Source of the DNA: a virus
Taxonomy: Duplodnaviria; Caudoviricetes
Direction: 5' to 3' (one strand)
DNA length: 52,535 bases
Virus record (IMG/VR): IMGVR_UViG_3300024520_007217
Span: 1 to 52,535 of that record
Part shown: positions 2,763 to 24,219 of the stretch, in pieces
Layout: every line of letters starts with the position of its first letter
Numbering within the stretch: position 1 is the first letter of the stretch
The notes under the pieces: model-generated
Seen by the model: the letters and a program-made list of their open reading frames with translations, nothing else
Database searches by the model: none
What the model was told of the DNA's origin: nothing
Translations under genes and position numbers: made by a program

Positions 2763-2907
2763 CCCTCGTTCCCCGTGCCTGTGGGGGCGACACTGCCTTC
2801 TACAATTATCCGTCTCCCACGGTGCGGCGATTCCTGTTTCGCAGGGCTGCCATTGCATAGCCCTCCACAGGCATTATTATCGAGACGACGCGAGTCCTAC
2901 CGCCCCG
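2763..2907 (-). repeat. 145-bp dispersed element, copy 1 (candidate structured RNA or mobile unit)
   Basis: Gap-free alignment with 16089-16233, 18844-18988 and 24075-24219; strand inferred from the adjacent promoter motif. Confidence 0.95.
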
Positions 2908-3301
2908 TTTTATCACCTTGCATGTTACCACGCATCTCGGCGAACTCAACTACCGATAATCCTTCTCTAATTAGCTTCCGACAATTGGGGTGGCCCATAT
3001 CAGGGGCCTTTAGCCAATAGTAATAATGGCTAAGAAGCCGCTCTACTGGGTCCCGAAACAACATACCCCGCTGCAAGCCAGGAATATGGCGATACCGGGA
3101 CAAGAAAAAATGGCCATGGATAATGGTCGTCTTATTTTTTCTCAGTTGGGCTAATACGGGGAGGGGAGCCGGTTCGGGAATGTAATCGGGTCTATCTGTG
3201 TGGTTATAATCCCAAAAGACACGCTTGCCAAAGAGGTGATCAAGGTGCTTTTGGAATGATAGACCTGCACTTTTTGGTACGTGGACACTAACTAACTTCA
3301 T
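2897..3301 (-). pseudogene. Sulfotransferase family protein, probably 3'-truncated
   Basis: 5'-PSB-like HVPKSAGLS, IHGHF, 3'-PB-like FRDPVERLLSHYYY; after EFAEM the DNA switches to the promoter/element sequence shared with 16234-16265. Confidence 0.75.
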
Positions 3302-3343
3302 AACCGCAGCCTTTTGCTTCGTTCAAATTACACTTCTACTGAA

Positions 3344-3372
3344 ATGATACTCGGTTTTAATGAGTACGTCAA
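3344..3372 (-). promoter_or_regulatory. Sigma70-type promoter of the sulfotransferase gene
   Basis: TTGACG-17 bp-TATCAT on the minus strand. Confidence 0.6.
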
Positions 3373-3376
3373 CAAT

Positions 3377-3556
3377 CTAAATCGCATCAAACAATTGGGT
3401 CTCTAATAATTCTATCTCTTTTTGTTTTTTGGTAAATTGGTTCTCTAATTGCCGCCTGACACTAACGTCTTGTGTATCAGCCGCCTGATTGAATAAAATA
3501 TAGGTATCTATTTCAACAGCTTGTAATTGCTGTTCTAATTGTTTGGGGGTTCCCAT
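3377..3556 (-). CDS. Small coiled-coil hypothetical protein (59 aa)
   Basis: Manual translation MGTPKQLEQQLQAVEIDTY...LETQLFDAI*; starts immediately after the upstream stop with GGAGG RBS. Confidence 0.65.
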   Translation of the reverse strand: MGTPKQLEQQLQAVEIDTYILFNQAADTQDVSVRRQLENQFTKKQKEIELLETQLFDAI

Positions 3557-5128
3557 CTATACGCCTCCTGACAATCCTATTTCTCTAATCGCAGCAGACA
3601 TCCCTCTTATTTGAATATCTTTGAATTCATCAATTTTCCGGCTCCGCGAGTCCCTGAGCGCATACTCAAATAATGCCTTTCTCCGTAGATCATCCATTTT
3701 ACGCCGGCTTCTTGATTGGCGACTATACGACCCTATCTCATCTTCAAGAACAGATATCTCATTGGTGAATTTTTCTTGATTTGCACGAATAATTTTTTGA
3801 TTGTTTTTTATACGTGTTATTTTGGTATCTTTATGTAATTTTCTGACCCCTTCTACACCAATTTTATCTTGATCGGCTACATTGAAATGATCTCTCATCA
3901 CGGCCATAGCCGTCTTCCGTTCAGAGGGATCAACAAGCCATCGGCGCCGCTCAGAGTCCCATGTTCGCTTAGAAGCAACTACATTGCTTTTTAAATCCGA
4001 GACAAACTCGGCATTATAGGGAGTTACCAAATGTAATCTCCCCCTCTTTGTTCCGATTACCCCAACTTCTTTAGACAACCTGATTGCTGTATCCCGTTTC
4101 CCTCTGGCACGTTCCTTGTAAACCTCCCGTTCAGATTTATCGCTATCCTTGAAAGCTCGCTTGGCATCTTTCGTTGTCCCGTACTTCCAGCCATGGCGCT
4201 TTTGATTATGCTTTCCCTGCATGTGGCGCAAAACTAATATCTCTCCAGTCAACCATGCTAAATCCGCTTTAGCCCGATAGCCCGGTATTTCGTCCGGTCT
4301 CTGTGCTTCCCAACTATCACAAAAGTAGTCCTGATCTGCGACAAATTCATATCGCTCGCACCAATCACGACCAGGGTCTCCTAAGAACTGCTTGCAGTTT
4401 TTGCAGCGCCTGGGGTCAGTCGCCGGCGTATAGTTGGGGGCGTCGGATTGGGATTTGGTTACATCAGCTTTATTTTTAAGCTGCTTTTTGAGACCCTTAA
4501 GCTGTTTTTTTAATGCTCTTTCAATAAGTGTCGCTTTTACATTAGCTTCTTGCTTTTTCTTGAAATCATTAGTCGTTTCAAGTGTTTTTAGTTGAGCATC
4601 CATTTCTTTACTCAACTCGTCAGAAGTTAGTTTAGACAACTTATTTACAATCGGTTTGCTTATTTGGCTGCTCAATAATCCCAGATTATCAGGAAGGGTC
4701 GAAAACGCCTCATCTGTCTTTGATTTGGATTTAGAAGACGGTTTTTTCTCCCCACTCCCTCCCTCTTTTCCTGAATGTCTTTTCTGACTGTGTTTGCCGC
4801 GTAAGTGTCTCTCGATTTTCGCGTCACTCCCATACAAATTATCATCCATATGCTGCGCTTTCTCTGGACACGTTGCCCCCAAGTCAACGCAGCTATCATG
4901 GGCCCGCTGAACCATAACTCGGTCTTGCTGGCTATGTTTTGCCCCGGCTCTCTCAGTTATCGGCTGACATACCGCGCCAAGGGGAAGGGATAGGTCATGC
5001 ATCTTTTGAATGAGTTCGTTTTCGGGCTTCGTGTGACGGGTACCCAATTTTTCGATCAAAATATCGTCTTGAGACTGACTCCGAACTGTTAAAATCATGT
5101 TTGCTAATTCGCTCAGTGATGTTTGCAT
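3557..5128 (-). CDS. Multi-module putative internal head protein
   Basis: Two QxxHDxxxxLGAxC repeats, two HxxGKHxQKRH motifs, a four-Cys module (CKNC...WC...FCDSW), a HARP-like segment (TPYNAEFVSDLK...TWDSERRRW). Confidence 0.6.
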   Translation of the reverse strand: MQTSLSELANMILTVRSQSQDDILIEKLGTRHTKPENELIQKMHDLSLPLGAVCQPITERAGAKHSQQDRVMVQRAHDSCVDLGATCPEKAQHMDDNLYGSDAKIERHLRGKHSQKRHSGKEGGSGEKKPSSKSKSKTDEAFSTLPDNLGLLSSQISKPIVNKLSKLTSDELSKEMDAQLKTLETTNDFKKKQEANVKATLIERALKKQLKGLKKQLKNKADVTKSQSDAPNYTPATDPRRCKNCKQFLGDPGRDWCERYEFVADQDYFCDSWEAQRPDEIPGYRAKADLAWLTGEILVLRHMQGKHNQKRHGWKYGTTKDAKRAFKDSDKSEREVYKERARGKRDTAIRLSKEVGVIGTKRGRLHLVTPYNAEFVSDLKSNVVASKRTWDSERRRWLVDPSERKTAMAVMRDHFNVADQDKIGVEGVRKLHKDTKITRIKNNQKIIRANQEKFTNEISVLEDEIGSYSRQSRSRRKMDDLRRKALFEYALRDSRSRKIDEFKDIQIRGMSAAIREIGLSGGV

Positions 5129-5131
5129 TGG

Positions 5132-5437
5132 TTAATCCCTTGCTTTTAGTACCCTTTCAGTTAAATCAATTAACCCCTTAACATCAGGTTTCGCAGCCCT
5201 GCCATCTCCCAATGTCCCCGTTTCAATATATCGTGCCGACCTGATATCAACCGGTCTGACGGTCTCCCAAATTTGCAATAATCCCCGATATTCTTTCTCG
5301 TTAGCGGCTTGTATCAATCCGCGCAAGAAGTCAAGGTCGTTGATGTAACTAGCCGGGGGATTCGACAAATTAGACAGCAGGGTCATATAGCGACTAATCT
5401 GGGTATTTAGGGTCCGTTTATCTGCTTGTAGGCTCAT
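5132..5437 (-). CDS. Hypothetical protein
   Basis: Operon spacing; C-terminus LIDLTERVLKAR resembles the leader of neighbouring proteins. Confidence 0.65.
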   Translation of the reverse strand: MSLQADKRTLNTQISRYMTLLSNLSNPPASYINDLDFLRGLIQAANEKEYRGLLQIWETVRPVDIRSARYIETGTLGDGRAAKPDVKGLIDLTERVLKARD

Positions 5438-5449
5438 AATATTCTCGAA

Positions 5450-5692
5450 CTAATAGACCACTCTTTTATCGAATTTACTCTTATCGAATGATAATATCTT
5501 GCCCCCAAACTGGTTTACCACATCCTGAGCCACAGTGTAATCTGGATTTGGGTCCGAAGCCTCTGCCCCATCAGGGGGTAACAGGTTATTCAGAATCCGG
5601 GCTACCTTGGGGGTATCTGATGTCCAAACGTAGCCACTAATCGTTGCCTCAATACCATCTCTAAACCAGGGTAATTTTATCGTTGCCGCCAT
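5450..5692 (-). CDS. Small hypothetical protein coupled to the polyvalent protein
   Basis: TAATG overlap with upstream gene. Confidence 0.65.
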   Translation of the reverse strand: MAATIKLPWFRDGIEATISGYVWTSDTPKVARILNNLLPPDGAEASDPNPDYTVAQDVVNQFGGKILSFDKSKFDKRVVY

Positions 5693-8600
5693 TATGGGGT
5701 CCTCGATTGAGCATATATAAAATCAAACATGTCAGGGTCTGACTCGGCAAATTTAAGGGGGTCTTTATACATCATTTCTATGCCCATCGAAAAGACTTCG
5801 GTCGCTCGGGCTCCGTAATCTTTGCCAATATAAGCACTAAAAAACTTATCGGCCTTAGATTGTTCACTGTCATTATATCCTTCATTGCCTGTTAATTCTG
5901 CCAAGGGCCTGAATTTTTCGTCCTTTGTCCGCTTATCTCGCCACTCAATAGATCGCTGCAATAGTCGAGGGCTATTATGCTCGGCCATGTGTCCTAATTC
6001 ATGAGCCATCGTCGCACTGCCCGCAAATCCAGACATGTGAACCTCTGAAATATACCCAGGGCCACCGGAAGTGTGGAATGAGCGGTCCTCCGATGTATGG
6101 GCGAATCTCGTTCGTGTCCCTGCAGGAACCACATCATCACTGACCAACGATTCGAATCCTTCGCGCCCCTTTTTCCAGCCGCCCTTTTCTATAATATCTT
6201 TGTCTCGTTTGCTGCCTGAAGCAGCAACGATTTTGGTGGGATTATCAACAGCCACTAACCTCTTGATCTTTGATGAAGGCTTGTGCAAATCTCTTAATTC
6301 TTTGTTGATCTGTATTTGCCGGTCAGTATGTTCAAGTTGCTTATTAATCATAGCTATAGCCCGAGGGTCATTATCGGCGAAACTAGATTGCTGCATCTGT
6401 TTTATCAATTTGTCTGCGCGATCCCCCTCTTCTCTTGCCTCTTTCCCAAGCCGCGCTGATTCCCTCCTCCTAACCCGCTGTTCATTGGACATCTCAACCC
6501 TAACCCGCTTTGCCTCATTTAAATTATGCTGGAATAAGACATTGCTGCCCCCCTCAGTTTCAACCTGGTAACTTATCATGATTCCTTCTGTGGTGGCCTT
6601 ATCTGGGGGCAAAGCGTTGCGCTTGGCTTGCAATTCATTTAGTTTGTTTGTAGATCGCTTAAGTTTTTCGTCCTTTGCCTGCAATTGCAAAGCCAGCGCT
6701 TCCCTTTTTTTCCCCTCTTTCTCTAATTGCACTTGGAGCTTGTCTATCTTTGGCTTGTTGGCAAAGAAATTTCGGGAATCGCTCGATAAATCAAGAATTT
6801 TGCCACGGATTTCTTCTTGCTTATCCATGGAATTCCATAATTTGTTTTGAGCGTTATGAGCTCTAGTTCGATTTGTGTCATCTTGGCTCTGGGCTTTCGT
6901 TATATCATTATCGAGAACTCTAACCGTCTTAAGGCTCCTATCCCTCGTTTGTTTTGCTGCTGCAACTGTTGCCCTCGCTTCAGCCAACTTTGCAGGAGAA
7001 ACCCTAACGATTCCCTCTTTTCTAGCTTGGCGTTCTTTGGCGGCAGCCTCTTTGACAATTCGTCGGGATTCCCTGGGAGATGCGTTTATAGCCTCAAACC
7101 CCCCGCCACGTTTTGAGCCCCCCTTTTTGCCAGGACGACCAACGTGCCCCCAATTGCCCGATGTCGGCCCGCCCCTGAGCGTAATTATAGCCGCAGCCGT
7201 TGTAAACAGGCCCGGCTGAGGAGATTGCCCGGCTGAACTAATCCAGGCATCAATCAATTGATCCTTTGATCGGCCGCCTCCCCCACCAAATAATGACCCT
7301 TGTGACGGGTGAGGCTCACCTTCTATCAAGTCACTCCAGCCCCCGAAGAATTCTGATAACTGCTTGCCCGATCTGCGGCGTTTATCTATCTCTACCAATA
7401 TTTTCTCTTGTGGCGCATTGAGCTCTCGGCCAAACAGTGCTCCCTGAGCAAGAAAATCAGAGACAGATAGATTGCGATCTTTCAGACTAGAATAGACCTG
7501 GACGGTCTTGGTAATATCGCCTGCGATACTAAGCCCTGAGCTCCTCTGCCCGGTCCTTACTAGCTCTTCAGCCCGAGACATGGAGCCCAGGCTGTTCATG
7601 ATTCCATTAGTGACATTCTTGATGTCGTTATCCGTACTCTCGAATATGCGGTCGGATAGTTCCGGGCTATCAAAAACCCTATTAAACATCGCTGCTTTGA
7701 TTCTATTCTCGCCACTAGCAGTGAGGGTTCCGTTCCGATCAATCATCGTGGCACGCTCGACCTCTGGTGTGTTGGCCACGAATGAGCGCACAAAATCACG
7801 ATTGGCCGGCGCTTTTATTGTTGCCTCTATACTATCACGGGTCGTGATTTGTTGTAAATGCTCTGAGCTAATTCGTGATGCATCTGACCTGGCCCGCTCG
7901 GTATCGCTCGCGCCCAAGATGGAAGCGGTGTTGGCCTCCTTTGCGAATTCTACCCGATCAACATCCGTTTTCCGAACACGCACCAAAACGGGATTATCGA
8001 ATCCCTCGAGCGAAGCAGGATCGAGACCTTTGTCCTGAGCCGTCTTTTTTAGCTCTTGCTGGTATTTTGCGTATTGTTCAGGGTGTTGGTCTCTGGCTCG
8101 CCTAAGCGCCATGGAACGCCCATTCCCGCTCTCTACGGCGTTATCGTTTCCAATGATGGGCGTCCCTCGATCAATGGCCTTAAACTCACCTAATAGGGCT
8201 TCAGGTTCCAAATTAGCAGCAATGCTATCAATTTGACGCTGACTGGCAACGCGGGTTCGGTCTCTGGGTTGTAGTTCCTTGGGAAAATCAGGGTTAATCG
8301 AGCCACTATCGTTATTTGAGGTTATCAGATTATCAAGCTCCCTAACCTCGTAACGCATCTCAAACTTTTTGCTAGGGTCAGTCCCGAGAACGGTGACGGT
8401 ATGCCCGTGCGTCGTCTCTGGTTGTTCCCGCTTTAAGGAGTCGTTGGCTCCGTTGGAATCGCCTAACATCTGATCAATCCGAGAACGCAGGGTGAGCAAC
8501 TCGTCTCGAGAGAAGTCTTCAAGAGCGCGATCTTTGAGAAGTTTGGATTTTACCTCGCGGGTCGTGCGGGTTTTTTGCGAGGCTTGTTTTCGCTCTTTAT

Positions 8601-8760
8601 GGCTTGACCCCGGTTTAGCCCCAATAGCCGCCAGGCCCCCACCTCTGCCACTTCCACCTCGTTTGCCCTTGCGACCAACATGGCCCCAGTTTCCAGAGCC
8701 TGCGCCACCGCGTAAGACAAGTACTTGTTCGATCAGGTGAAGAAGATTGTCAAAATCCAT
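5692..8760 (-). CDS. Polyvalent protein: DdrB-like ParB domain, coiled coil, C-terminal zincin-like metallopeptidase
   Basis: ELQPRDRTR...GTPIIGNDNAVESGNGRSMAL (DdrB-ParB type); HELGH...EVFSMGIE (HExxH plus downstream Glu). Confidence 0.8.
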   Translation of the reverse strand: MDFDNLLHLIEQVLVLRGGAGSGNWGHVGRKGKRGGSGRGGGLAAIGAKPGSSHKERKQASQKTRTTREVKSKLLKDRALEDFSRDELLTLRSRIDQMLGDSNGANDSLKREQPETTHGHTVTVLGTDPSKKFEMRYEVRELDNLITSNNDSGSINPDFPKELQPRDRTRVASQRQIDSIAANLEPEALLGEFKAIDRGTPIIGNDNAVESGNGRSMALRRARDQHPEQYAKYQQELKKTAQDKGLDPASLEGFDNPVLVRVRKTDVDRVEFAKEANTASILGASDTERARSDASRISSEHLQQITTRDSIEATIKAPANRDFVRSFVANTPEVERATMIDRNGTLTASGENRIKAAMFNRVFDSPELSDRIFESTDNDIKNVTNGIMNSLGSMSRAEELVRTGQRSSGLSIAGDITKTVQVYSSLKDRNLSVSDFLAQGALFGRELNAPQEKILVEIDKRRRSGKQLSEFFGGWSDLIEGEPHPSQGSLFGGGGGRSKDQLIDAWISSAGQSPQPGLFTTAAAIITLRGGPTSGNWGHVGRPGKKGGSKRGGGFEAINASPRESRRIVKEAAAKERQARKEGIVRVSPAKLAEARATVAAAKQTRDRSLKTVRVLDNDITKAQSQDDTNRTRAHNAQNKLWNSMDKQEEIRGKILDLSSDSRNFFANKPKIDKLQVQLEKEGKKREALALQLQAKDEKLKRSTNKLNELQAKRNALPPDKATTEGIMISYQVETEGGSNVLFQHNLNEAKRVRVEMSNEQRVRRRESARLGKEAREEGDRADKLIKQMQQSSFADNDPRAIAMINKQLEHTDRQIQINKELRDLHKPSSKIKRLVAVDNPTKIVAASGSKRDKDIIEKGGWKKGREGFESLVSDDVVPAGTRTRFAHTSEDRSFHTSGGPGYISEVHMSGFAGSATMAHELGHMAEHNSPRLLQRSIEWRDKRTKDEKFRPLAELTGNEGYNDSEQSKADKFFSAYIGKDYGARATEVFSMGIEMMYKDPLKFAESDPDMFDFIYAQSRTP

Positions 8761-8779
8761 AATCTACAAAAAAGAGGTA

Positions 8780-9004
8780 TCAACTTGCGCCAAGTATACC
8801 ACTATCTATCAGGAAATCTGCATCTTCCTGATCTATAATGGCATCAGCAACCAATTGCGTTAAATATGCAATAGCGTTCTTAGCCGTCTTCGGTGCATTT
8901 GAAACTACTTCTTCCAACCGACGAGGCACACCAATTCCGTCAACCACTGAAAGTTCTCCACTTTTCCAGGTGTATCTGTTTTTTCTATTCTGTGATATGG
9001 CCAT
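8780..9004 (-). CDS. Small hypothetical protein downstream of ADP-ribosyltransferase
   Basis: Starts 4 bp after the ART stop; GAGG RBS. Confidence 0.65.
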   Translation of the reverse strand: MAISQNRKNRYTWKSGELSVVDGIGVPRRLEEVVSNAPKTAKNAIAYLTQLVADAIIDQEDADFLIDSGILGAS

Positions 9005-9008
9005 AATC

Positions 9009-9839
9009 TTAGTCCTCTACAATTTCAGCTATTATTTTTTTAATTCCCTGATTTCCAAATAACCCGCCCGATTCAACCTTTTTGATAAGTAACTTTTGCC
9101 CTCGTCCTAATAACAATTCTTGTTCATTATTATGAACTCCCCCGGGTAAATTCCCAAGATACCCACCTTTGCTCCCCTTCGGTACACGAATTTCCATTGA
9201 TACTCCAGGGAATGTGCGTTTTTTGTTGACAGTGGTGGATATATATGCTTTATCTTCAATAGTCTGCCCCACCCACCCCGGCTGATCACTTCCCAACAAA
9301 TCAGATAAAGTTTCAACCTCTATCCCTCGATACACTGTGACATCTCTTGGTACCGTAGCTTTGCTTAATGCCTTGTCAATATTCTTTATAGCTTCTTGAT
9401 TTTCTTCACTAATCTTTTTCCCCCCCCTCAGATGTCCATTAATTTGTAAATAATTACTAGTTTGATAAGTAATCAATCCATCATTCTCTCTCTCTGTCAT
9501 TCCCTTATGCCAACTATCATAGCTCTTCGACATTTCCTTATGGTTAGTCGGTTTAGCCAAACCTCGTTTAACCGATTTGAGCTTTGGTTTCTGAAGGGAT
9601 AATACAGTTTCTTTTTGGGTTATCCCAGAATCGGACGCTTTCTTAGCTGCCTGCTTAGCTGCCTGCTTGACTGCCTTTCGGCTGACTCCAGGTTTAACAC
9701 CGACTCTTTTGAAACCTCCTCCCTTGCCGCTTCCGCCGCGCTTCCCCTTACGTCCTGCATGCCCCCAATTACCAGAAGTAGAACCGCCGCGTAAAATAAG
9801 TATCTTTTCAGTTAGGTCAAGAAGTCGCTGTATGTCCAT
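9009..9839 (-). CDS. VIP2/Alt-like ADP-ribosyltransferase
   Basis: YLQINGHLRG, VYRG, YISTT, VPKGSKG, EQELLL: R-S-E triad with ExE. Confidence 0.88.
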   Translation of the reverse strand: MDIQRLLDLTEKILILRGGSTSGNWGHAGRKGKRGGSGKGGGFKRVGVKPGVSRKAVKQAAKQAAKKASDSGITQKETVLSLQKPKLKSVKRGLAKPTNHKEMSKSYDSWHKGMTERENDGLITYQTSNYLQINGHLRGGKKISEENQEAIKNIDKALSKATVPRDVTVYRGIEVETLSDLLGSDQPGWVGQTIEDKAYISTTVNKKRTFPGVSMEIRVPKGSKGGYLGNLPGGVHNNEQELLLGRGQKLLIKKVESGGLFGNQGIKKIIAEIVED

Positions 9840-9842
9840 AAT

Positions 9843-9874
9843 AAAAAAGGGGCAGGGTAGCTATACCCCACCCC
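9843..9874 (-). terminator. Intrinsic terminator after capsid/HNH genes
   Basis: GGGGTGGGGT-loop-ACCCTGCCCC followed by T6 on minus strand. Confidence 0.7.
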
Positions 9875-9900
9875 GAGGAGGAGAGAAACAATGAATTACG

Positions 9901-11115: not shown

Positions 11116-11127
11116 TATATCCCCCGA

Positions 11128-11184
11128 TACAATATCAGTATTAAGTACTACTGATATTGTACCAGAAGATCACTGTTTAATCAA
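11128..11184 (-). promoter_or_regulatory. HNH promoter overlapped by a 13-bp inverted repeat
   Basis: TTGATT-17-TACAAT; TACAATATCAGTA (11128-11140) / TACTGATATTGTA (11149-11161). Confidence 0.65.
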
Positions 11185-11225
11185 TGCGGACAAGAATATT
11201 TAATAAATACTAATCCGTCGTTATG

Positions 11226-12446: not shown

Positions 12447-12581
12447 AATTATACCTCTTTTGATAATTTAAAGTTTGAGTTCAAGCGCACTGACTTGACA
12501 TTGTACATCGGACAGATCACACCTGAAGGCAGGCTTAACGATCTGCCCAATTTAACACAATACGTAGTGCGTTAGCAGGGC

Positions 12582-15192: not shown

Positions 15193-15204
15193 GGTCTCCT
15201 CAAA

Positions 15205-15285
15205 TAAAAAAAGCTGCGGAACATTCCGCAGCTTCAAACAGTTATATTATGTATTGCATTATATCACAGATTAATGCAGGTACAA
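15205..15285 (-). promoter_or_regulatory. Promoter followed by a terminator-like hairpin
   Basis: Extended -10 TGATATAAT; hairpin AAGCTGCGGA-ATGT-TCCGCAGCTT then T run. Confidence 0.6.
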
Positions 15286-15304
15286 ATACAAATTTATTTT
15301 AATT

Positions 15305-16069
15305 TCAAGTAAAGCAATAGCCACTGTCACAGCCATCAAAAAAGGATGGCTGTGATGGAAAATTCTTAACAGCTTCTTTTAAGGGTATTCGTTGATCGGT
15401 AAAATATAGGCCGGGTAGGTTTTTTTCTATTTTAGATAGCTCCTCTATTATGATCGAGGATGTTCGTTCCCATCGGGCCTTATCTTTATGAGGGCACATA
15501 TCACATTCAGTCGAGAGGAGGTACGGTATCCCTCGTTCAACCAGATTTTCTTGTATCGTTGCCCGGTACAACTTCAAATCGACTAACGGCCAGTAATGAA
15601 AATTCCACTTTACATCTGAAATTTTCATCCGTTCGGTTTCTGCAATCGTTAATCCAATAGCAGTTCGGGCTGTAATAGCCCCGCGCCGCCGCAACTCCTG
15701 ACGAACTGCACGGATTTTATATTTTCCTGTACAGGATTGGAGATTGCGCCCCCCCATACTACCAAACATTGGAACCCCGGCGCTCTTCCCCTGACGCATT
15801 AAATCAATAATTGCTGGCAATTCTTTGCCATTTTTATCTTGAACTCTCACAAAAACAGCGTTTATCCCGTTTTCAGAGGAGTAAGGTTCAATCACCCGGT
15901 CAAAGTATTCTTTTGCCGAGGTTCGTTCCCCGGTTGACCAAATGCAATCATTCTCCGAACCAGTATCAGCAGTAATTGATAATTTTGCAGGAATTTTGCC
16001 TTCTGCCGCCAAGACTAGCATCATCATTGATTGACTTCCCATCCCGTTACTTATCGCTTCTATGTGCAT
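15305..16069 (-). CDS. PAPS-reductase-like (adenine nucleotide alpha-hydrolase) protein
   Basis: ISNGMGSQS PP-loop variant, ADTGSE, SCTGKYKI, ECDMCP, C-terminal CDSGYCFT. Confidence 0.75.
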   Translation of the reverse strand: MHIEAISNGMGSQSMMMLVLAAEGKIPAKLSITADTGSENDCIWSTGERTSAKEYFDRVIEPYSSENGINAVFVRVQDKNGKELPAIIDLMRQGKSAGVPMFGSMGGRNLQSCTGKYKIRAVRQELRRRGAITARTAIGLTIAETERMKISDVKWNFHYWPLVDLKLYRATIQENLVERGIPYLLSTECDMCPHKDKARWERTSSIIIEELSKIEKNLPGLYFTDQRIPLKEAVKNFPSQPSFFDGCDSGYCFT

Positions 16070-16088
16070 CTCTGTTCGTCCTCGAACT

Positions 16089-16233
16089 CCCTCGTTCCCC
16101 GCGGCTGAGGGGGCGACACTGACTTCTGCGCTTGCCCCTCTTCCACAGAGCGGCGATTCCTATTTCGCAGGGCCTCTAGCGAGTCGCCCTCCACAGGCAT
16201 TATTCTCGAGACGACGCGAGTCCTACCGCCCCG
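16089..16233 (-). repeat. 145-bp dispersed element, copy 2
   Basis: Gap-free match to the other three copies; begins 14 bp downstream of a -10 box. Confidence 0.95.
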
Positions 16234-16247
16234 TTTTAATACCTTGC

Positions 16248-16276
16248 ATGTTACCACGCATCTCGCTTGATGTCAA
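16248..16276 (-). promoter_or_regulatory. Sigma70-type promoter directly upstream of element copy 2
   Basis: TTGACA-17 bp-TAACAT with extended TG; same design recurs at 20498-20526 and partly at 2922-2949. Confidence 0.8.
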
Positions 16277-16378
16277 CCCCTAATGTGGGGATCCAAGGCA
16301 TCAAAAAAGGGCCAAAATGCTGACCCTAGAGAAACTTTGCTAAATTGGGAATAAAGAGGGTTATCTAACCCATCTTTC

Positions 16379-18754
16379 TCATGATCCATCCCATGCGTTT
16401 AACTCGCCCGCTTTAGAAATCAGTTCATCCTCGTTAAACTGAATATGGCAGTGACAGGTATTCGGGTGGCCGGGAGGGCCAGGGGTATCAGCATCACCAA
16501 AAACCGAAGGATACATAAAACCAATATCCACAAGCCCCATTTGAATATTGGCCGTGCAAACCTTACAGGGTGTATCAGGGCCTGTATGTACCCATGCCTT
16601 TTGGGTGAGTCCCTGCTTATCCCACTGCTGAATTCTTCCATTCGTTTCGCTCTTGTTAATCTCCGTATTGACAATGGACTTAATCCGCGCCTCAGACAGC
16701 CCCTCGATTTCTTTCCGGGCCCGGTCAGTCACCTTCGCCACCAGGGTGCTTTCCTTCAGTATCTTATCTAGCCCCTGCCCCTCTTGAATCCTTAACGAGA
16801 TTTCATCGCCGCTCACCCCCTCGTCAACCGAAGATGTAATAATCCGCTTCAAATAGAACTTCGTGCCATCATTGACGTGTCTCACCAAATCAGCGGCTTT
16901 AGCGTTTAACTCGGCCAGGGTGACCGGGTTTTTAAGCTGAAAGTTGAGACCAATCAAGTCAGGCGAGTTAACCAGCCCCTCCTCATAAAGAAATTGTTGC
17001 ACCAATTCAGCCGCAATTGTAGCCCCCTCGCTAAAAGCCAGGGTCAGCACCTCCAAGATTTCAGCCACCGTGTCCGGCGGTAATTCCCACCACTTGTCTT
17101 TCTCTAACAGCGCCTCAAGCTCATCTAAAATCGCCTGATCAATCTTCTGGACCTGCGGGATATCGTCAAAGATGCAAGCCTCACCAAACCATGCTTTTAT
17201 CCGCTCCGCTGCCCATTGTCCACGATCTGCATCAGAAAGGTTGATAATAGCCTTGGAAGAGATGGGGAATTGAGACTTAGCCGCGGCTCGAATAAGCCGC
17301 CTAAGCTGGATATCTCCCATTTGTCTCAAAACCGCATCAAATGCCTTTTTGAATACCAACCCCAGGCGATCATAATTAGACGAGCTCGGAGGTACGGCTG
17401 ATATAGCCGGGTCCCCCAACGTTGCCCGTTGCGTTTGCCCCACATCTCCGCGCCCCCCCTGGCTAGGAGGTACGCGGTCCAACTCTTCATCAGTTTCGGG
17501 TGATCCATTCCCATTTGGCAGAGGCTGAGGTTGCTCTTTTGGCGGCTCCAATTCAACAGTCAACAGCCCGTCCTTTTTCAACTGCGCTTGCCCGTCCCCG
17601 ACTGTGATGAATCCACCCTCCCCCAGAGCCTTTAGGGCTTGCGCATTCAACAGCCTGGCCCGTCCGGTGTTAGAGAGAGCTTCATCATCACGCTCAATCC
17701 AGTCAAATTCAAGGTAAGGAGGCAAGACATTATTATTGAAGAAATTCTTCGTTTTCTCCCTGATCATACCAAACCCGGTTTGCCGACTTTCCCTTTGCCG
17801 TCTTATCTCCCCGGCCAACGTCCCTCCAGCCGGATCAAGGCCGATATCTTTTAATGTCAGCCAATATCCAGCCGCCACGATCCGTGATTCCTTCAAAGTT
17901 ACACTGTCATACATCATCTCTGACGGAGGCCGGCCAAACGGTATCCATTTTGCCGCCTGTGTATGCTCATACAGAACCCCTATTTTTAACGGATCCACGC
18001 CTTGCAATAGGGTCTGATAGCTAGATACCCACGCGGCAGCAGATTCTTGATCCATATCTAATAAATCAAGAATGCCTGCCTCTGGAGTGTCTAGCAACAT
18101 TTTAGCATAATATTGATTGCCATAATATAGCAAGCTAATAGCCATATAAATGCGCTGTGGGGGGGGCATCCCGTAGCCTTTCACGCGCATCTCTGGACGG
18201 GGCGTCAATACGATTCGTCCAATCTCATTCCGGGCAAAAAAGACCGGATTCGCCATGTTTCCCTGGATTTTTTGCATTATCGGGAATTCAGGATCATGGG
18301 TAGGGATGATCGTTGCCCCATCAATATTAATAATCTTGAAAATATGACCACGAGGGTGAGGGCGAGTGACACGAAACTCTTCGCCGTCAAATTCAATTGT
18401 AGGCAAAACGTTAAGTGGCCAACGTACTAACTCTGCGGTTCCACCCGCAGGCAAGTCAAGAACATCTTGCCATAGAAGATCGAGAATTATATCAAATTCA
18501 CGTAAGACATAATTTTTATAGTAGGCTATATCCGGCTCTAACGCCTCTTGATCCTCTGGTTTCTTGGCAGTGATGTCCCAGGGGAGCGCCTGGGCATAGA
18601 CGATAAGCCGATCTCGGCAAATAATGGCTACCGGCTCATTTCGCACCACATTGCGCCATCGAGCGGCCTCTACCCACATCGGAGCCAAAAAGTCTGGCAG
18701 ATAGCGCCTCAAAAACGAGGGGATTTCAAGTGATTTTTGTTTGGGGTCGGCCAT
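16379..18754 (-). CDS. Portal protein fused to MuF-like head morphogenesis domain
   Basis: Follows terL; IDGATI and GYGMPP portal-like segments; C-terminal TEINKS...KAWVH...CKVC...PPGHPNTCHC MuF signature. Confidence 0.85.
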   Translation of the reverse strand: MADPKQKSLEIPSFLRRYLPDFLAPMWVEAARWRNVVRNEPVAIICRDRLIVYAQALPWDITAKKPEDQEALEPDIAYYKNYVLREFDIILDLLWQDVLDLPAGGTAELVRWPLNVLPTIEFDGEEFRVTRPHPRGHIFKIINIDGATIIPTHDPEFPIMQKIQGNMANPVFFARNEIGRIVLTPRPEMRVKGYGMPPPQRIYMAISLLYYGNQYYAKMLLDTPEAGILDLLDMDQESAAAWVSSYQTLLQGVDPLKIGVLYEHTQAAKWIPFGRPPSEMMYDSVTLKESRIVAAGYWLTLKDIGLDPAGGTLAGEIRRQRESRQTGFGMIREKTKNFFNNNVLPPYLEFDWIERDDEALSNTGRARLLNAQALKALGEGGFITVGDGQAQLKKDGLLTVELEPPKEQPQPLPNGNGSPETDEELDRVPPSQGGRGDVGQTQRATLGDPAISAVPPSSSNYDRLGLVFKKAFDAVLRQMGDIQLRRLIRAAAKSQFPISSKAIINLSDADRGQWAAERIKAWFGEACIFDDIPQVQKIDQAILDELEALLEKDKWWELPPDTVAEILEVLTLAFSEGATIAAELVQQFLYEEGLVNSPDLIGLNFQLKNPVTLAELNAKAADLVRHVNDGTKFYLKRIITSSVDEGVSGDEISLRIQEGQGLDKILKESTLVAKVTDRARKEIEGLSEARIKSIVNTEINKSETNGRIQQWDKQGLTQKAWVHTGPDTPCKVCTANIQMGLVDIGFMYPSVFGDADTPGPPGHPNTCHCHIQFNEDELISKAGELNAWDGS

Positions 18755-18766
18755 AGTAGAACCTTA

Positions 18767-18835
18767 AATAAAAATAACTGCGGACATTTGATCCGCAGCT
18801 ATGAATATGATACCTTTTTTCAGTTGTCAGGTCAA
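18767..18835 (-). promoter_or_regulatory. Portal promoter followed by a terminator-like hairpin
   Basis: TTGACC-17-TATCAT; TAGCTGCGGA-loop-TCCGCAGTTA then T-rich tract. Confidence 0.65.
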
Positions 18836-18843
18836 TTTTACTG

Positions 18844-18988
18844 CCCTCGCTCCCCGCGGCTGAGGGGTAGACACAGACTTCTGCAATTATCCATCTCCTA
18901 CAGAGCGGCGATTCCTGTTTCTCAGGGCTGCCATTGCATAGCCCTCCGCAGGCATTATTATCGAGACGACGCGAGTCCTACCGCCCCG
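18844..18988 (-). repeat. 145-bp dispersed element, copy 3
   Basis: Gap-free match to the other three copies. Confidence 0.95.
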
Positions 18989-19135
18989 AATAAAAGTCTC
19001 CTAGCCTACTGCCATCCAAAGGTCGAGTCCCACACCTTAAACTGGCAAGTCGATGGGGATGCCGTATCTTGCTTTTCGGCTGGCAATTCTGCAACTTCTT
19101 TCCACCCCTCCTCCCCGTCCCAAAAGCAGAGGTGC

Positions 19136-19357
19136 TCAACCTCTGCCCTCTCGCCATTGTCCCCCCCCGCACCAGCACCGCCGCCCGCCAATATTGCCCG
19201 TGTCCCGGCACGCCGTGCAGGTCACTGGTAAAAGCGGCTGCGTGGCGACCGGACGCGGGATGAACGGGGCCTGCCCCGCGCGGGGGGCGGTCTGGCTGAA
19301 GAGGGGTAGGTCTTGCCCCTGGGTGAAAAATGAGGGTTGTTGGGGTTTTGTTTTCAT
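19136..19357 (-). CDS. Small protein with CxxC...CxC zinc-ribbon motif
   Basis: AAGGAG RBS; CTACRDTG...CWC. Confidence 0.6.
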   Translation of the reverse strand: MKTKPQQPSFFTQGQDLPLFSQTAPRAGQAPFIPRPVATQPLLPVTCTACRDTGNIGGRRCWCGGGQWREGRG

Positions 19358-19384
19358 GAGGGCTCCTTTCTTTGAATGGGGGGG

Positions 19385-19681
19385 TTAAATAATATACGTT
19401 ATTTCGCCGGGCCAATAGCCAGGTTTTGTATATCGGCTAATTGCTGCCAAACTGTCGTTTTTCCCTTCGCTAACGACATAAACGTTATCGCCAGCCCGGG
19501 CGGCGGCCAGGTCGGACGCGCTCTCAAATATGTCTGTAAAATCCAATGCCTGGGGCATACTTTCGTCCCCTTCTGGGATCGAAATAAATGCATTGGGCTT
19601 TCGCTCAAATAATGCAATTAATTGGCGTTCTTGCTCATCTTCCAGGTATTCATAAATTATTGTCGAAACTTGCGCGTACAT
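19385..19681 (-). CDS. Hypothetical protein
   Basis: AAGGAG RBS; cassette gene between terL and portal. Confidence 0.65.
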   Translation of the reverse strand: MYAQVSTIIYEYLEDEQERQLIALFERKPNAFISIPEGDESMPQALDFTDIFESASDLAAARAGDNVYVVSEGKNDSLAAISRYTKPGYWPGEITYII

Positions 19682-19706
19682 TTTGTTGCTCCTTGAGTTC
19701 GTTGAA

Positions 19707-19910
19707 TTAAAGATTAGATTTATCTAGCTTCTCGAATTGTTCTGGGCGAATTGTCCCCGTGTGGTACGGATGCATTTCGCCCAACTGGGTTATTTCCAGG
19801 TCTTGTATTTGATCCTGGATAATGCTGGTCAAATTGAAGATGTCGGGCGTGTCGGGGGTGTCGGGGGTATCCAGTTCTTTTCGTAATTTGAAATATGATG
19901 CGAGGTTCAT
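19707..19910 (-). CDS. Hypothetical protein
   Basis: Start moved to MNLASYFK behind GAAAGGAAG. Confidence 0.55.
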   Translation of the reverse strand: MNLASYFKLRKELDTPDTPDTPDIFNLTSIIQDQIQDLEITQLGEMHPYHTGTIRPEQFEKLDKSNL

Positions 19911-19926
19911 GTTTGGCTTCCTTTCG

Positions 19927-20220
19927 TTAAGAGTATTGAGTGTCGGCGAATTCAATATCTTCGTCGCCGTCCTCGATTCCGAGTTGGCGTAATTGCTCAT
20001 TAATATCGTCATCAGAGGGGGGAGGTGTAATGGGGGGATCCATCACTTGAATTACACGCGGGTCCCTGCTCATATCCGGGCTGCCCAATATGGACTTTGT
20101 CTCAGCGTCGTAAAATTTGCTATAATCTGCTGTATTAGCAGATGTTTTTATCAAGCTAATCGGGTCTACATGATAAAACAATTTGAATTTTTGCCCTATT
20201 TTCAAATCTAAAAATTTCAT
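19927..20220 (-). CDS. Hypothetical protein (MKFxDLKIGQKF N-terminus, acidic tail)
   Basis: GAAAGGAAG RBS; operon position. Confidence 0.65.
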   Translation of the reverse strand: MKFLDLKIGQKFKLFYHVDPISLIKTSANTADYSKFYDAETKSILGSPDMSRDPRVIQVMDPPITPPPSDDDINEQLRQLGIEDGDEDIEFADTQYS

Positions 20221-20456: not shown

Positions 20457-20497
20457 TTTGTTTCTCCTTTCGTTAGGTCCTTCTCAAATCTAAATAC

Positions 20498-20526: not shown

Positions 20527-20545
20527 CCCCCAAAGTAGATGAGTT

Positions 20546-21889: not shown

Positions 21890-21893
21890 TTAG

Positions 21894-22472: not shown

Positions 22473-23698
22473 TTGATTAGTTCAGGCTTGTCTCCCGTGA
22501 GATCGGCCCAGCGTTGAAGACAAACCGCAGCATAGCCAGGGTCTATTTCAATGCCACGACATGCACGGTTGAGTTGGTGAGAAGCGATTAGAGTCGTGCC
22601 AGAACCAAGGAATGGATCAAAAATAATATCATTCTTTTTAGTGCTATTTCTCATTGGACGAGCCATACATTCCATTGGCTTTTGAGTAGGATGATATTCA
22701 TTAATGTTTGGCTGTTTTATATCCCAGACCGACGTTTCATTTGTGTCCCCATACCAATTAGCCCCATTCCGGACACAATACAAACAGGGTTCGTGTTTCT
22801 GCAAATACTGAGCCATAAAGTTCCCATAATGAGCATCTAGCTTATTCCATACTATTAAAGCCCGGACAGACAACCCTATATTATCAACTGCAGAATAAAC
22901 TGCTTTTCCATTTCTGCCTGCAAACCATAGATAAAAAACGGGTTTTTCAGCCTCAAAACGTTGGCCGGTCGATAAAGCATCGAAATACAATAAAATATCA
23001 TCATTTTCGAGTTTAGGTCTTGGCTTATTACTAATGGGATTTCTGCCCCCAATATATGACACACCATAAGGGGGATCTGTAATCATTGCATTGAATCTAT
23101 CGTCTTTCATTACACTTTCCACTATATTTTTATCGGTACAATCCCCCACAGCCATCCGATGCTCACCTAAAGCCCAAAGTTGCCCCAACTTTGTCCCATA
23201 CTCCTCTTGCAGCTCAGCCGCCCGGTCAATCTGCGGCTCGACGTCTTCTGGCGGGTCGTCCTTCACCAACTCGCCCAAAATCTCTTTAAGTTCATCTTCT
23301 CGAAACAGATCATCTAGTTGAATGCCCGTCTCGAGATCAGCCAAGATACGTTCCGGGTCAAAGTCAATCGAGACCTGGGCTGACCGATTGAGATAATAGC
23401 TTAACCGTCGGCCGGCTTCCGTCTCAAGATCAATATCAGCGCGTTTGATGAACACCGGCTGTTGGCCATCGACCTCAATGATAATCGCCTCCTCTGCTGC
23501 CAGCACATCAGCGCTGACCTCCGTCCGATGATTGCCGCCGATGATGCGGTTATTTTTATCGAGCGTTCCTGCCTCTGCAAAGCCAAATTGCTCCATAGAG
23601 TTACGGAGCAGAACATTGCCGCGTTCGGTGTGTCGGTTGGCGTTTAAGAGGTCGGGTTCAATCTCGGATAGTTTGACGACTTTGATTGAGTTGGTCAT
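22469..23698 (-). CDS. ParB-like N-terminus + N6/N4 DNA methyltransferase
   Basis: IIGGNHR; ITDPPYG, HPTQKP, DPFLGSGTT, GIEIDPGY. Confidence 0.92.
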   Translation of the reverse strand: MTNSIKVVKLSEIEPDLLNANRHTERGNVLLRNSMEQFGFAEAGTLDKNNRIIGGNHRTEVSADVLAAEEAIIIEVDGQQPVFIKRADIDLETEAGRRLSYYLNRSAQVSIDFDPERILADLETGIQLDDLFREDELKEILGELVKDDPPEDVEPQIDRAAELQEEYGTKLGQLWALGEHRMAVGDCTDKNIVESVMKDDRFNAMITDPPYGVSYIGGRNPISNKPRPKLENDDILLYFDALSTGQRFEAEKPVFYLWFAGRNGKAVYSAVDNIGLSVRALIVWNKLDAHYGNFMAQYLQKHEPCLYCVRNGANWYGDTNETSVWDIKQPNINEYHPTQKPMECMARPMRNSTKKNDIIFDPFLGSGTTLIASHQLNRACRGIEIDPGYAAVCLQRWADLTGDKPELIK

Positions 23699-23740
23699 CG
23701 GTCACCTCGCTAGGGATATTATACAAGGGCTGAGGCAAAA

Positions 23741-23762
23741 TAAAAAACCGCCAGGTGGCGGT
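23741..23762 (-). terminator. Intrinsic terminator
   Basis: ACCGCCA-CC-TGGCGGT hairpin followed by T run on minus strand. Confidence 0.6.
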
Positions 23763-23798
23763 ATGGATAAAATATATTGCAAAGAGAGGCGGTTTAGC

Positions 23799-24125
23799 TC
23801 AAAAAGGCAAATCAAATTGGGTTGATGGTTCAGGCACAATCCCCGAATTCCTTTTTTTTATTCCCCAGTTTTTAGCCAGAATACAATATTCTGGGATTCT
23901 ATCTGCTTCTGTCCACATGAAATTAGCCATGGCTCCGTCCCTTTGATTGGACCTCATGCCCCATTTGATAATCCCCTGGTTTGTTGCTCGTTGGGTTGCT
24001 CCCCAGTCCAGGAATATCCAATCCTCAAAAAGATTATCTTTATCACGATCATAACCCACGAAATAATAGAGAGCCCCTCGCTCACCGTGCCTGTGGGGAC
24101 GACACTGGATTAAAATCTTATCCAT
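23799..24125 (-). CDS. Hypothetical protein whose first 17 codons lie inside element copy 4
   Basis: GGGAG-ATG and MDKILIQCRPHRHGERG come from the repeat; the remainder is unique sequence. Confidence 0.55.
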   Translation of the reverse strand: MDKILIQCRPHRHGERGALYYFVGYDRDKDNLFEDWIFLDWGATQRATNQGIIKWGMRSNQRDGAMANFMWTEADRIPEYCILAKNWGIKKRNSGIVPEPSTQFDLPF

Positions 24126-24219
24126 CTCCCACGGTGCGGCGATTCCTGTTTCGCGGGGCCTCTAGTGAGTCGCCCTCCGCAGGCATTATTATCGAGACGA
24201 CGCGAGTCCTACCGCCCCG
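24075..24219 (-). repeat. 145-bp dispersed element, copy 4
   Basis: Gap-free match to the other three copies. Confidence 0.95.

Follow-up and report, generated by a model that had tools for sequence, protein, structure and literature searches.

Four copies of an intergenic element and their sister loci

The window, a stretch of 52,535 nt of phage DNA, contains four copies of an element that form a gap-free 145-nt alignment (2763-2907, 16089-16233, 18844-18988 and 24075-24219). All four lie on the minus strand, which is the strand of the adjacent genes. A repeat search of the window returned a single family of four copies, with 76-86% identity to the reference over 178 nt, and BLAST within the record recovered the three other copies at E = 1e-44 to 2e-52. 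Read on the minus strand, the first 28 nt are the same in 4/4 window copies, and in 10/10 when six further copies are included; in the alignments, similarity stops after ...CGAGGG in every copy, and an apical segment is exchanged between two forms. These observations agree with an earlier note on this DNA, which had also placed the copies at module borders. That placement is right only in part: all four are intergenic, directly upstream of co-oriented genes. The elements are richer in G+C (59-65%) than the window (47.7%), suggesting that they are foreign in origin or under constraint.

A 35.9-kb contig adjoins window position 1 and carries four more copies of the first 116 nt of the element, each of which leads into a mini-array with 29-nt repeats and 1 to 4 spacers. 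A bridging contig of 1253 nt (L060) has 100% matches both to window positions 1-683 and to the end of the 35.9-kb contig. By this bridge and a 127-nt identical overlap, the window and the adjoining contig are one marine phage genome, at least 88 kb in size, which holds eight leader-bearing CRISPR loci, four solitary and four in the form of mini-arrays. The mini-arrays on the adjoining contig are as follows.

Array A: 5 repeats, spacers of 33, 32, 32 and 33 nt
Array B: 3 repeats, spacers of 33 and 22 nt
Array C: 3 repeats, spacers of 32 and 35 nt
Array D: 2 repeats, spacer of 14 nt

The last 29 nt of each window copy are the repeat unit of these mini-arrays, and the 116 nt that precede the window repeats give a gap-free alignment with what lies upstream of the four real arrays. 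Since this 116-nt sequence precedes repeat-spacer arrays in the same phage, the 145-bp element is very likely a CRISPR leader of 116 nt plus one CRISPR repeat of 29 nt, without a spacer. The four window units have no second repeat, and for copy 1 none occurs within 80 nt downstream with up to 7 mismatches allowed. Under this reading, the features of the window are the following.

1..127: shared with the end of the mini-array contig, 100% identity over 127 nt
2763..2791, minus strand: copy 1, solitary 29-nt CRISPR repeat (GTCGCCCCCACAGGCACGGGGAACGAGGG), matching the mini-array repeats
2792..2907, minus strand: copy 1 leader, 116 nt, aligned without gaps to the leaders of four arrays
2857..2894, minus strand: copy 1 anti-repeat (imperfect inverted copy of the repeat), leader nt 14-51, from inverted repeat and duplex energy
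2922..2927, minus strand: copy 1 TAACAT -10 box with TGG in front, from alignments
15305..16069, minus strand: phosphoadenosine phosphosulfate reductase-like gene (phrog_424, E 1.6e-11), starting 19 nt past the copy 2 repeat
16089..16117, minus strand: copy 2, solitary 29-nt CRISPR repeat, loop variant CTCAGCCG
16118..16233, minus strand: copy 2 leader, 116 nt
16183-16220, minus strand: copy 2 anti-repeat, within the leader
16248..16276, minus strand: copy 2 promoter TTGACA-17-TAACAT with TG; a terminator-like hairpin precedes it at 16308-16327
16379..18754, minus strand: portal / head-morphogenesis-like gene, downstream of copy 3
18844..18872, minus strand: copy 3, solitary 29-nt CRISPR repeat
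18873..18988, minus strand: copy 3 leader, 116 nt
18938-18975, minus strand: copy 3 anti-repeat, within the leader
24075..24103, minus strand: copy 4, solitary 29-nt CRISPR repeat with a weakened stem (GGTG)
24104..24219, minus strand: copy 4 leader, 116 nt
24169-24206, minus strand: copy 4 anti-repeat, within the leader
24227..24232, minus strand: copy 4 TAAAAT box within the near-palindrome GGCGTTTAAAATGCC, read by eye

The geometry of these loci, with 29-nt repeats, 32-33-nt spacers and a CCCC/GGGG hairpin followed by 8 nt, corresponds to that of class 1 type I-E. Like type I-E repeats, they carry CCCC...GGGG arms in the register of the E. coli repeat and 8 nt after the hairpin; unlike them, the 8-nt tail reads AACGAGGG instead of the ...ACCG type, and the hairpin has just four G-C pairs in most copies, which counts against the CRISPR reading. 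The degenerate leader-proximal repeats of arrays B and D also count against it, as does the conservation profile of the leader. Adaptation signals are normally conserved in the repeat-adjacent leader, and here the 32 nt next to the repeat are the least conserved part (15/32 columns invariant), whereas the far 84 nt are the best conserved (69/84). Of the five repeats of array A, the pair nearest the leader share one sequence, the following pair share another, and the distal one diverges most; this is the pattern of leader-end acquisition.

An alternative is that the solitary units are collapsed or empty arrays with no role of their own, their spacers having been lost by recombination between repeats, and that they persist as landing pads for host Cas1-Cas2 or as decaying remnants. 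In E. coli, a leader and one repeat suffice for acquisition. The spacer-bearing sister loci share the same leader, arrays B and D look decayed in both their degenerate repeats and their 22- and 14-nt spacers, and mosaic copies, with a copy-2-type leader joined to a copy-1-type repeat in L062, show recombination among loci. However, two strain variants, from the loci of copies 1 and 2 and with flanks 93-98% identical, are still solitary, and contigs from four other runs show no extra repeat-spacer unit at copies 1-3, a weak line of evidence, since the elements are where contigs break. The low conservation of the repeat-proximal leader also speaks against this alternative, and the invariance of the far leader across all eight loci is hard to reconcile with decay. 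We consider it unlikely.

RNA folding and an anti-repeat in the leader

The element had initially been described as a candidate new class of structured RNA. Its constant scaffold stands, and the unit is very probably transcribed, as judged from consensus-like promoters at 3/8 units; the evidence for a global fold is weak. The helices proposed then are pair-compatible in 99.1% of 220 cells, but 15/22 pairs never vary and thus neither support nor contradict the structure. Folding energies are no better than those of shuffled sequences (z-scores from -1.45 to +0.06), and compensatory change occurs only at two adjacent apical pairs, equivalent to one haplotype swap. The 3' arm of the supposed 3' stem falls within the CRISPR repeat. 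In Rfam, the repeat matches no family, CRISPR-DR included, even at E up to 10. The proposal of a new RNA class is not sustained: the 3' 29 nt are a CRISPR repeat, and real arrays in the same phage are preceded by the remaining 116 nt.

The best-conserved far 84 nt of the leader hold the anti-repeat. The repeat search recovered it as an inverted repeat in copy 1 (2776-2787 / 2862-2873, 12 nt, 92%) and copy 4 (24077-24096 / 24177-24196). The duplex between leader and repeat has a predicted energy of -34.9 kcal/mol in copy 1, with 1/300 shuffles as good, and of -37.1 kcal/mol in copy 4, with 0/300. In these two copies, the predicted minimum-energy fold of the whole element pairs the repeat with the leader, and would thereby hide the repeat from a Cas6-type enzyme.

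These pairings raise the possibility that the conserved 5' domain acts as a module of tracrRNA-like or antisense type whose anti-repeat pairs with CRISPR repeats. In cis, it could form a natural single guide, in the scaffold - repeat - guide order of engineered Cas12 guides, or a leader-repeat hairpin controlling processing; in trans, it could anneal to the pre-crRNA of the host and prevent its maturation. Leader nt 14-51 are predicted to be pairable with 27/29 repeat nt, including a 15-bp core with one bulge, and 32/38 columns of this best-conserved region are invariant. With a copy-1-type repeat, 10/10 leaders beat their shuffles (z from -2.0 to -5.1, 0-7/200 as good). On the other hand, covariation is absent from the leader-repeat helix, and the repeat variant CTCAGCC (copies 2 and 3, array C) breaks it with no compensation in the leader (z from +0.9 to -1.2). 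We know of no tracrRNA-dependent system with 29-nt repeats and 32-33-nt spacers, no candidate effector was found in the 88 kb among the matches listed, and the inverted copy could be a relic of rearrangement. Taken jointly, the cis and trans forms of this explanation appear quite unlikely.

Two precedents are relevant to such a module. Migur et al. 2026 (PMC13187072) present type VI and II leader RNAs complementary to the first repeat, with predicted masking, in class 2 systems with crRNAs in guide-repeat order. The leader RNA of our phage is likewise complementary to the repeat and predicted to mask it; unlike theirs, it occurs in a class 1 type I-E geometry with a distance of 65 nt between anti-repeat and repeat, and half of the copies have lost the pairing. 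Similarly, phage-encoded single-guide RNAs against Cas9 unite repeat and anti-repeat in one phage RNA (10.64898/2026.06.01.729453). Both would be present in one molecule here too, but in reversed order (anti-repeat 5', repeat 3'); a tracrRNA tail and a Cas9-type repeat are lacking, and the same scaffold also stands in front of real spacer arrays.

Promoters and downstream genes

Copy 2 is preceded by the TTGACA-17-TAACAT promoter and upstream TG that had been reported earlier, ending 14 nt before the copy, and in all 3/8 phage units have this arrangement at the same distance from the leader. As had also been claimed, copy 1 keeps the TAACAT box in the alignments; the promoter scan flagged neither copy 1 nor the box of copy 4. 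By eye, the upstream type of copy 4 also precedes arrays A and B.

The position of the units could indicate a cis-acting promoter/5'-UTR cassette, that is, a portable promoter and leader for downstream operons in which the repeat serves RNA processing or stability. Each of the eight loci, window units and arrays alike, has a co-oriented gene directly downstream, and for copies 1 and 2 and arrays A-D no terminator-like site is predicted in between. Copy 2, with its short distance to the reductase-like gene, follows a terminator-like hairpin and is therefore at an operon start. In contrast, between copy 3 and the portal gene lie a separate promoter-like site and a 12-bp terminator-like hairpin; the promoters are not part of the conserved 145 nt and vary from unit to unit, and promoter function would leave the CRISPR repeat and the arrays unaccounted for. 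A cassette of this kind is an improbable explanation.

More improbable still are two other readings of the element, as a non-autonomous MITE-like mobile element or as a micro-ORF for a 22-aa peptide (MPVEG...RNRNRR...). Dispersed copies with sharp ends would suit the former, but terminal inverted repeats are absent, the sole inverted repeat is internal and no target-site duplications were seen by eye in the flanks, and a mobile unit has no support. An ATG-initiated frame is present in 10/10 copies; however, the stop position is common to 6/10, with the other four continuing into the repeat, variable sites are spread 12/8/14 over codon positions 1/2/3, and no Shine-Dalgarno or ribosome-binding site was seen before the ATG, and the micro-ORF reading fails.

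Host dependence and comparison with known systems

No Cas families occur among the first 25 families per list for 88 ORFs or in 30 proteins scanned individually, and six-frame searches did not find Cas6e or Cas1. With no recognizable cas genes in the 88 kb of the phage, the loci must rely on the system of a host. A scan of genomes from 185,579 species gave 45 single repeat matches with no nearby second repeat, and no host array or cas locus with this repeat was found in it; a metagenome scan, in which the pattern was narrower than for the genomes, found the repeat only in this phage and its strain variants. No protospacers were found for the array spacers, in a related virus or elsewhere. These outcomes speak against the explanation favoured below, as do the Rfam result and the leader-repeat pairing predicted for copies 1 and 4.

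The units most likely interfere with or exploit host CRISPR immunity, and their most likely function is that of a promoter-driven crRNA mimic or decoy, or of a spacer-less array using host Cas proteins. Transcription of the unit would start at the promoter just upstream, and a host Cas6-type enzyme would then bind and cut the repeat hairpin. The solitary units would give rise to crRNA mimics that have no guide and sequester Cas proteins, and the spacer-bearing sister loci would yield real guide RNAs. As a whole, we lean towards this explanation of a promoter-driven, host-dependent leader and repeat cleaved to guide-less crRNA mimics; that the solitary units then act as decoys is put forward tentatively, by analogy with RNA anti-CRISPRs (Racr).

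In Camara-Wilpert et al. 2023 (PMC10651486), Racr are solitary repeat units downstream of promoters, including two I-E candidates. The expected product here would likewise be a guide-less crRNA mimic; unlike the Racr described there, a conserved 116-nt leader stands between promoter and repeat, and this phage has four units plus four real mini-arrays sharing that leader. For archaeal viruses, Medvedeva et al. 2019 (PMC6858448) describe Cas-less arrays of few spacers behind a promoter-containing leader, together with stand-alone repeats in the same viruses; by their account, those repeats are without a recognizable leader, as were the phage mini-arrays known at that time. Our phage resembles these viruses in combining cas-less, leader-bearing arrays of few spacers with solitary repeats in one virus. 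It differs in being a tailed phage, in bearing leaders on arrays and solitary repeats alike, and in that no spacer target was found in a related virus.

The viral crRNA-like regulatory RNA arrays ('Cracr arrays') of the preprint by Liu et al. (10.1101/2024.10.29.618823) have degenerate repeats and pseudo-spacers of 21-24 nt, and membership depends on a pseudo-spacer match to a host cas or toxin promoter. The window units differ from them in having no second repeat; array B, with a spacer of 22 nt, and array D, with one of 14 nt, look similar to them.

CRISPR repeats behind a common leader

A gap-free alignment confirmed the four 145-bp elements reported in the earlier note. They lie on the minus strand, where the neighboring genes are also encoded, and form one repeat family; comparisons of the copies within the record give E values of 1e-44 to 2e-52. 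As the earlier note describes, their first 28 nt are invariant and the similarity ends at one common base, here placed after ...CGAGGG; the likeness of the four copies is far beyond chance. When IMG/VR was searched for a stretch of 21 invariant nt, a single further contig emerged. It measures 35.9 kb and carries another four copies, behind each of which the final 29 nt recur at CRISPR spacing. Because the same leader precedes repeat-spacer arrays, the 145-bp element consists of a 116-nt leader and one 29-nt CRISPR repeat.

Leader-bearing loci of the phage
Window 2763-2907 (-): copy 1, leader and a single repeat, no spacer
Window 16089-16233 (-): copy 2, leader and a single repeat, no spacer
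Window 18844-18988 (-): copy 3, leader and a single repeat, no spacer
Window 24075-24219 (-): copy 4, leader and a single repeat, no spacer
Adjoining contig: array A, leader and 5 repeats, spacers of 33, 32, 32 and 33 nt
Adjoining contig: array B, leader and 3 repeats, spacers of 33 and 22 nt
Adjoining contig: array C, leader and 3 repeats, spacers of 32 and 35 nt
Adjoining contig: array D, leader and 2 repeats, spacer of 14 nt

The two contigs are neighboring parts of one phage genome, since the adjoining contig shares its terminal stretch with window positions 1-127 at full identity and a 1253-nt contig from another sample matches both sides across the junction at 100%. The joined genome measures at least 88.3 kb and carries eight leader-bearing loci; searches with the other end of the window and the other end of the adjoining contig returned no further contigs. 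What had appeared as a new structured RNA from one window could thus be resolved through the rest of the genome.

The adjoining contig contains several near-identical direct repeats, within the 23-50 nt range and at regular spacing, as in a CRISPR array, and the 116-nt leader lies upstream of all eight first repeats. Spacers are unique and of similar length in array A (32-33 nt), and arrays B and D hold short ones (22 and 14 nt). No spacer matches another among the nine; within the phage, seven match their own array only, and A3 and C2 each have one additional 14-nt match elsewhere. Tandem Repeats Finder reported nothing on the arrays, as expected with unique spacers. In array A the two repeats nearest the leader have one sequence in common and the two after them another; the distal repeat, which has the best hairpin (CCCCAC/GUGGGG), is the most divergent. 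Identical leader-proximal and divergent distal repeats are the usual polarity of arrays.

The repeat occurs in variant forms, including GGCGTGGGG and CTCAGCCG. Its 29 nt, the 32-33-nt spacers and an internal hairpin followed by 8 nt correspond to type I-E geometry, and it is by this geometry that type I-E is tentatively assigned here. No typed repeat family, Rfam CRISPR-DR or other, matched at E up to 10, and the genome and metagenome scans with the repeat revealed no cas locus beside it.

These loci are best read as orphan phage CRISPR loci that would rely on the Cas proteins of a host. Solitary repeats and mini-arrays carried by phages are known viral routes to exploit or disarm CRISPR immunity. 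RNA anti-CRISPRs from solitary repeat units (Racrs) have been shown to sequester Cas proteins as guide-less crRNA mimics, according to the part of PMC10651486 cited here. By analogy, the solitary units of this phage would most likely act as promoter-driven, guide-less decoys for Cas proteins, for which we infer transcription, processing and inhibition. The sister arrays may provide real or regulatory guides, as in related systems (cf. PMC6858448; 10.1101/2024.10.29.618823).

Fold, conservation and setting of the units

The earlier note had considered a structured RNA, a micro-ORF or a mobile unit for these elements. The folding energies lend no support to a structured RNA, being no better than those of shuffles for the four elements (z of -1.45, -0.48, +0.06 and -1.42) or for two leaders alone (-0.26 and -0.05). 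We compared ten copies, namely the eight loci and two strain variants, L062 at the copy 1 locus and L059 at the copy 2 locus. Among the helices that had been proposed, only the central hairpin retains some support, and 15 of the 22 pairs never vary. In 3 of 10 rows both partners of the adjacent apical pairs 51:60 and 52:59 are changed, as one haplotype swap, and the 3' stem has one pair changed on both sides once and broken once. The micro-ORF did not hold either: a stop is common to six of the ten copies, variable sites number 12, 8 and 14 at codon positions 1, 2 and 3, and no ribosome-binding site is seen. Similarly, a MITE or IS end was rejected for lack of both terminal inverted repeats and a target-site duplication; the flanks differ, no duplication is visible by eye, and the only inverted repeat is internal.

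Known families offered no other identity. The window gave 0 Rfam matches at the gathering threshold, and at E up to 10 the matches around copy 1 (Histone3, Pyrobac-1 and ssnA) and in array A (Chlorobi-1 and Pyrobac-1 only) are at chance level. The tRNA/tmRNA scan of the window found none. Against GenBank phages, copy 1 had no BLASTN match and array A reached three records at E = 4; against plasmids, array A reached two records at E = 5, both results being at chance level.

Conservation is uneven along the unit, as summarized below, and because all ten copies come from one phage lineage, it may reflect recent duplication and gene conversion.

Invariant columns among ten copies of the unit
Leader nt 1-84: 69 of 84
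Leader nt 85-116, adjoining the repeat: 15 of 32
Repeat: 17 of 29

The copies are mosaics, which suggests that the loci exchange sequence by gene conversion and not by transposition. For instance, L062 combines a copy-2-type leader with a copy-1-type repeat. The units have 59-65% G+C against 47.7% for the window, and the leader, at 55-61% G+C, is atypical for a CRISPR leader.

All eight loci lie directly upstream of co-oriented genes, and copy 3 is the only unit with a predicted terminator-like site before its gene. This arrangement would suit promoter or 5'-UTR cassettes, a rival to the decoy reading; the promoters themselves lie outside the conserved 145 nt. A consensus-like TTGACA-17-TAACAT promoter with a TG ends 14 nt before the leader of copy 2 and of arrays C and D (3 of 8 loci), and copy 1 retains the -10 box. 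By eye, copy 4 and arrays A and B share a second upstream type with a TAAAAT box, and copy 3 has a third. A promoter within 250 bp upstream is a criterion for solitary repeat units in the cited part of PMC10651486, and each window copy has a candidate at that distance, flagged in copy 2, represented by the -10 box in copy 1 and recognized by eye in copies 3 and 4.

Other observations concern the same upstream regions and the genes that follow. The near-palindrome GGCGTTTAAAATGCC lies at window 24220-24240, just upstream of the leader, and at the same positions before arrays A and B (3 of 8 units); it may be an operator. In L059 the unit and downstream gene are 98% identical to the window, and the promoter region upstream of the leader is swapped for unrelated sequence, with about 510 nt inserted before homology resumes. 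On the adjoining contig, positions 1-15508 of L056 hold a sugar-modification cluster with a DegT-type aminotransferase, an RmlD-like reductase and several glycosyltransferases, and two of the CRISPR mini-arrays are directly upstream of glycosyltransferase genes.

Passive empty arrays, in which the solitary units would be arrays without spacers and nothing more, are another rival. Contigs of four runs compared with window 1-20000 displayed no new spacer at copies 1-3. These contigs break at the elements, and the joints there lead into other copies and arrays.

An anti-repeat in the leader

Leader nt 14-51 form an imperfect inverted copy of the repeat, with a 15-bp core that includes one bulge; as many as 27 of the repeat's 29 nt can pair, and a search for repeats in the sequence confirmed the inverted copy. 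The leader is thus complementary to the repeat, as an anti-repeat in a tracrRNA-type scaffold would be. When leaders were paired with their own repeats, shuffles did as well in 1 of 300 cases for copy 1 and in 0 of 300 for both copy 4 and L062, and pairing did not stand out from shuffles in copies 2 and 3 or arrays C and D. All ten leaders gave z values of -2.0 to -5.1 with the copy-1-type repeat. The repeat-loop variant CTCAGCC, present in copies 2 and 3 and array C, abolishes the pairing, and the leader shows no compensation.

A functional anti-repeat or tracr-like domain is a further rival to the decoy reading, which leaves the conserved far leader with its anti-repeat unexplained. The highly conserved 84-nt 5' domain, instead of being a passive leader, could be a phage anti-repeat RNA, either a natural single-guide scaffold (scaffold, repeat, guide) for an unrecognized effector or an antisense on host CRISPR repeats that blocks pre-crRNA maturation; we regard this as improbable. 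Under it, the solitary units would be the minimal form of the proposed RNA. A tracrRNA-type scaffold would call for pairing kept by compensatory change and for a tracrRNA-dependent effector; the repeat variant is not compensated, and the phage searches showed no such effector. The closest precedents for the anti-repeat leader include leader-repeat hairpins, as outlined in the cited part of PMC13187072, and phage single-guide RNAs, as outlined in that of 10.64898/2026.06.01.729453. If a functional anti-repeat is true, leader-repeat or tracr-like RNA pairing would extend to a repeat of class 1 geometry.

Cas genes, spacer targets and further features of the phage

We return to the decoy reading, for which host Cas proteins would be needed. 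No Cas family appears among the matches listed for the 88 ORFs of both contigs (25 of 44 Pfam families and 25 of 120 PADLOC families) or in 30 proteins scanned singly. Six-frame searches of the phage for Cas6e and Cas1 gave no match, and the Cas6e search may be insensitive, because its control was detected in only 1 of 14 control genomes. The window units therefore correspond to solitary repeats as defined for viruses, a single repeat in a viral genome and not next to cas genes. Two effector candidates were discarded: a 617-aa protein just after array C, which belongs to a widespread phage hypothetical family, and a 523-aa protein near copy 1 with no usable relatives, both without a Pfam, PHROG or PADLOC match.

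Likeness to host repeats is a further criterion for Racrs, and the repeats of the units are those of the phage's own arrays. A degenerate repeat scan of the genome collection gave 45 loci with one match each; we take these as chance, because a re-scan at up to 6-7 mismatches revealed no second repeat at CRISPR spacing. The metagenome scan for a host array, whose narrow pattern misses the GGCGTGGGG variant, found six loci on five contigs, all of them this phage or its strain variants. The phage occurs in sequencing runs of seawater metagenomes, with no RNA run listed among them. Its TerL is too distant to name a host, since the best identity to GenBank phages is 43% (Thermobifida and Streptomyces phages), and the portal-like protein had no match there.

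No protospacer was found for the phage spacers, with all nine compared with the sequences collected here, four with IMG/VR and array A with GenBank phages. In the collected sequences, seven spacers gave only self-matches above 14 nt; A4 also matched over 17 nt with 2 mismatches (E 28), and C2 matched exactly over 14 nt (E 0.032). Among the four of nine searched in IMG/VR, A2, A3 and C1 matched only themselves. Matches of A1 on three other IMG/VR contigs were dismissed as protospacers, because 9-12 of the 33 positions disagree and the stretch is periodic and of low complexity.

Viral solitary repeats and mini-arrays are already known, as the cited part of the review PMC11656645 states, and the phage mini-arrays known in 2019 had no leaders, according to the cited part of PMC6858448. 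The stand-alone repeats in the cited parts of this literature likewise have no recognizable leader. A word search of titles and abstracts, with incomplete coverage, returned neither leader-bearing solitary phage repeats nor an anti-repeat in a class 1-type leader. In this phage, eight loci share a highly conserved leader; half are without a spacer, and all head phage transcription units. If the decoy reading is true, it would represent an unusually heavy, multi-copy investment in RNA-based counter-defense.

Several other features of the genome were recorded. On the adjoining contig, 125 nt at positions 11702-11826 (+) of L055 match the tmRNA family RF00023 (70.6 bits, E ~1e-25). The match covers the tRNA-like ends only (acceptor stem and T arm), with 55 nt between them and without the tag-coding part. 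ARAGORN made no call on this stretch, which might represent a mini-tmRNA of the phage or the relic of an attachment site.

Within the window, one contig of run X3 skips the 1336 nt of 9889-11224 and has 30 other letters instead; an ORF at 9901-11115 in the skipped stretch has homing-endonuclease, NUMOD3 and HNH matches. Members of the phage population thus seem to differ in whether they carry a homing endonuclease gene. Among the head genes, an ORF at 9009-9839 (-) carries an ADP-ribosyltransferase exoenzyme-type domain (Pfam E 8e-32, pooled scan), and its PHROG matches are Alt-like RNA polymerase ADP-ribosyltransferases. At 5692-8760 (-), a 1022-aa protein has a ddrB-like ParB domain (E 4e-35) and strong matches to PHROG families with no assigned function.

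Repetitive sequence is also present. Long runs with a 15-nt period lie inside ORFs at window 30292-30891, 35393-35800 and 37442-38500, and four of these ORFs match pentapeptide-repeat families, an unusual phage cargo. Three 40-nt copies at 33475-33514, 33845-33884 and 34276-34315, 83-95% identical and 370-431 nt apart, fall in a run of small minus-strand ORFs and might represent the ends of paralogous genes or a regulatory site in several copies. Finally, three tandem 22-23-nt units containing GACAAGTTGTCAC at 43966-44039 resemble iterons, and a replication origin or an operator may lie there.
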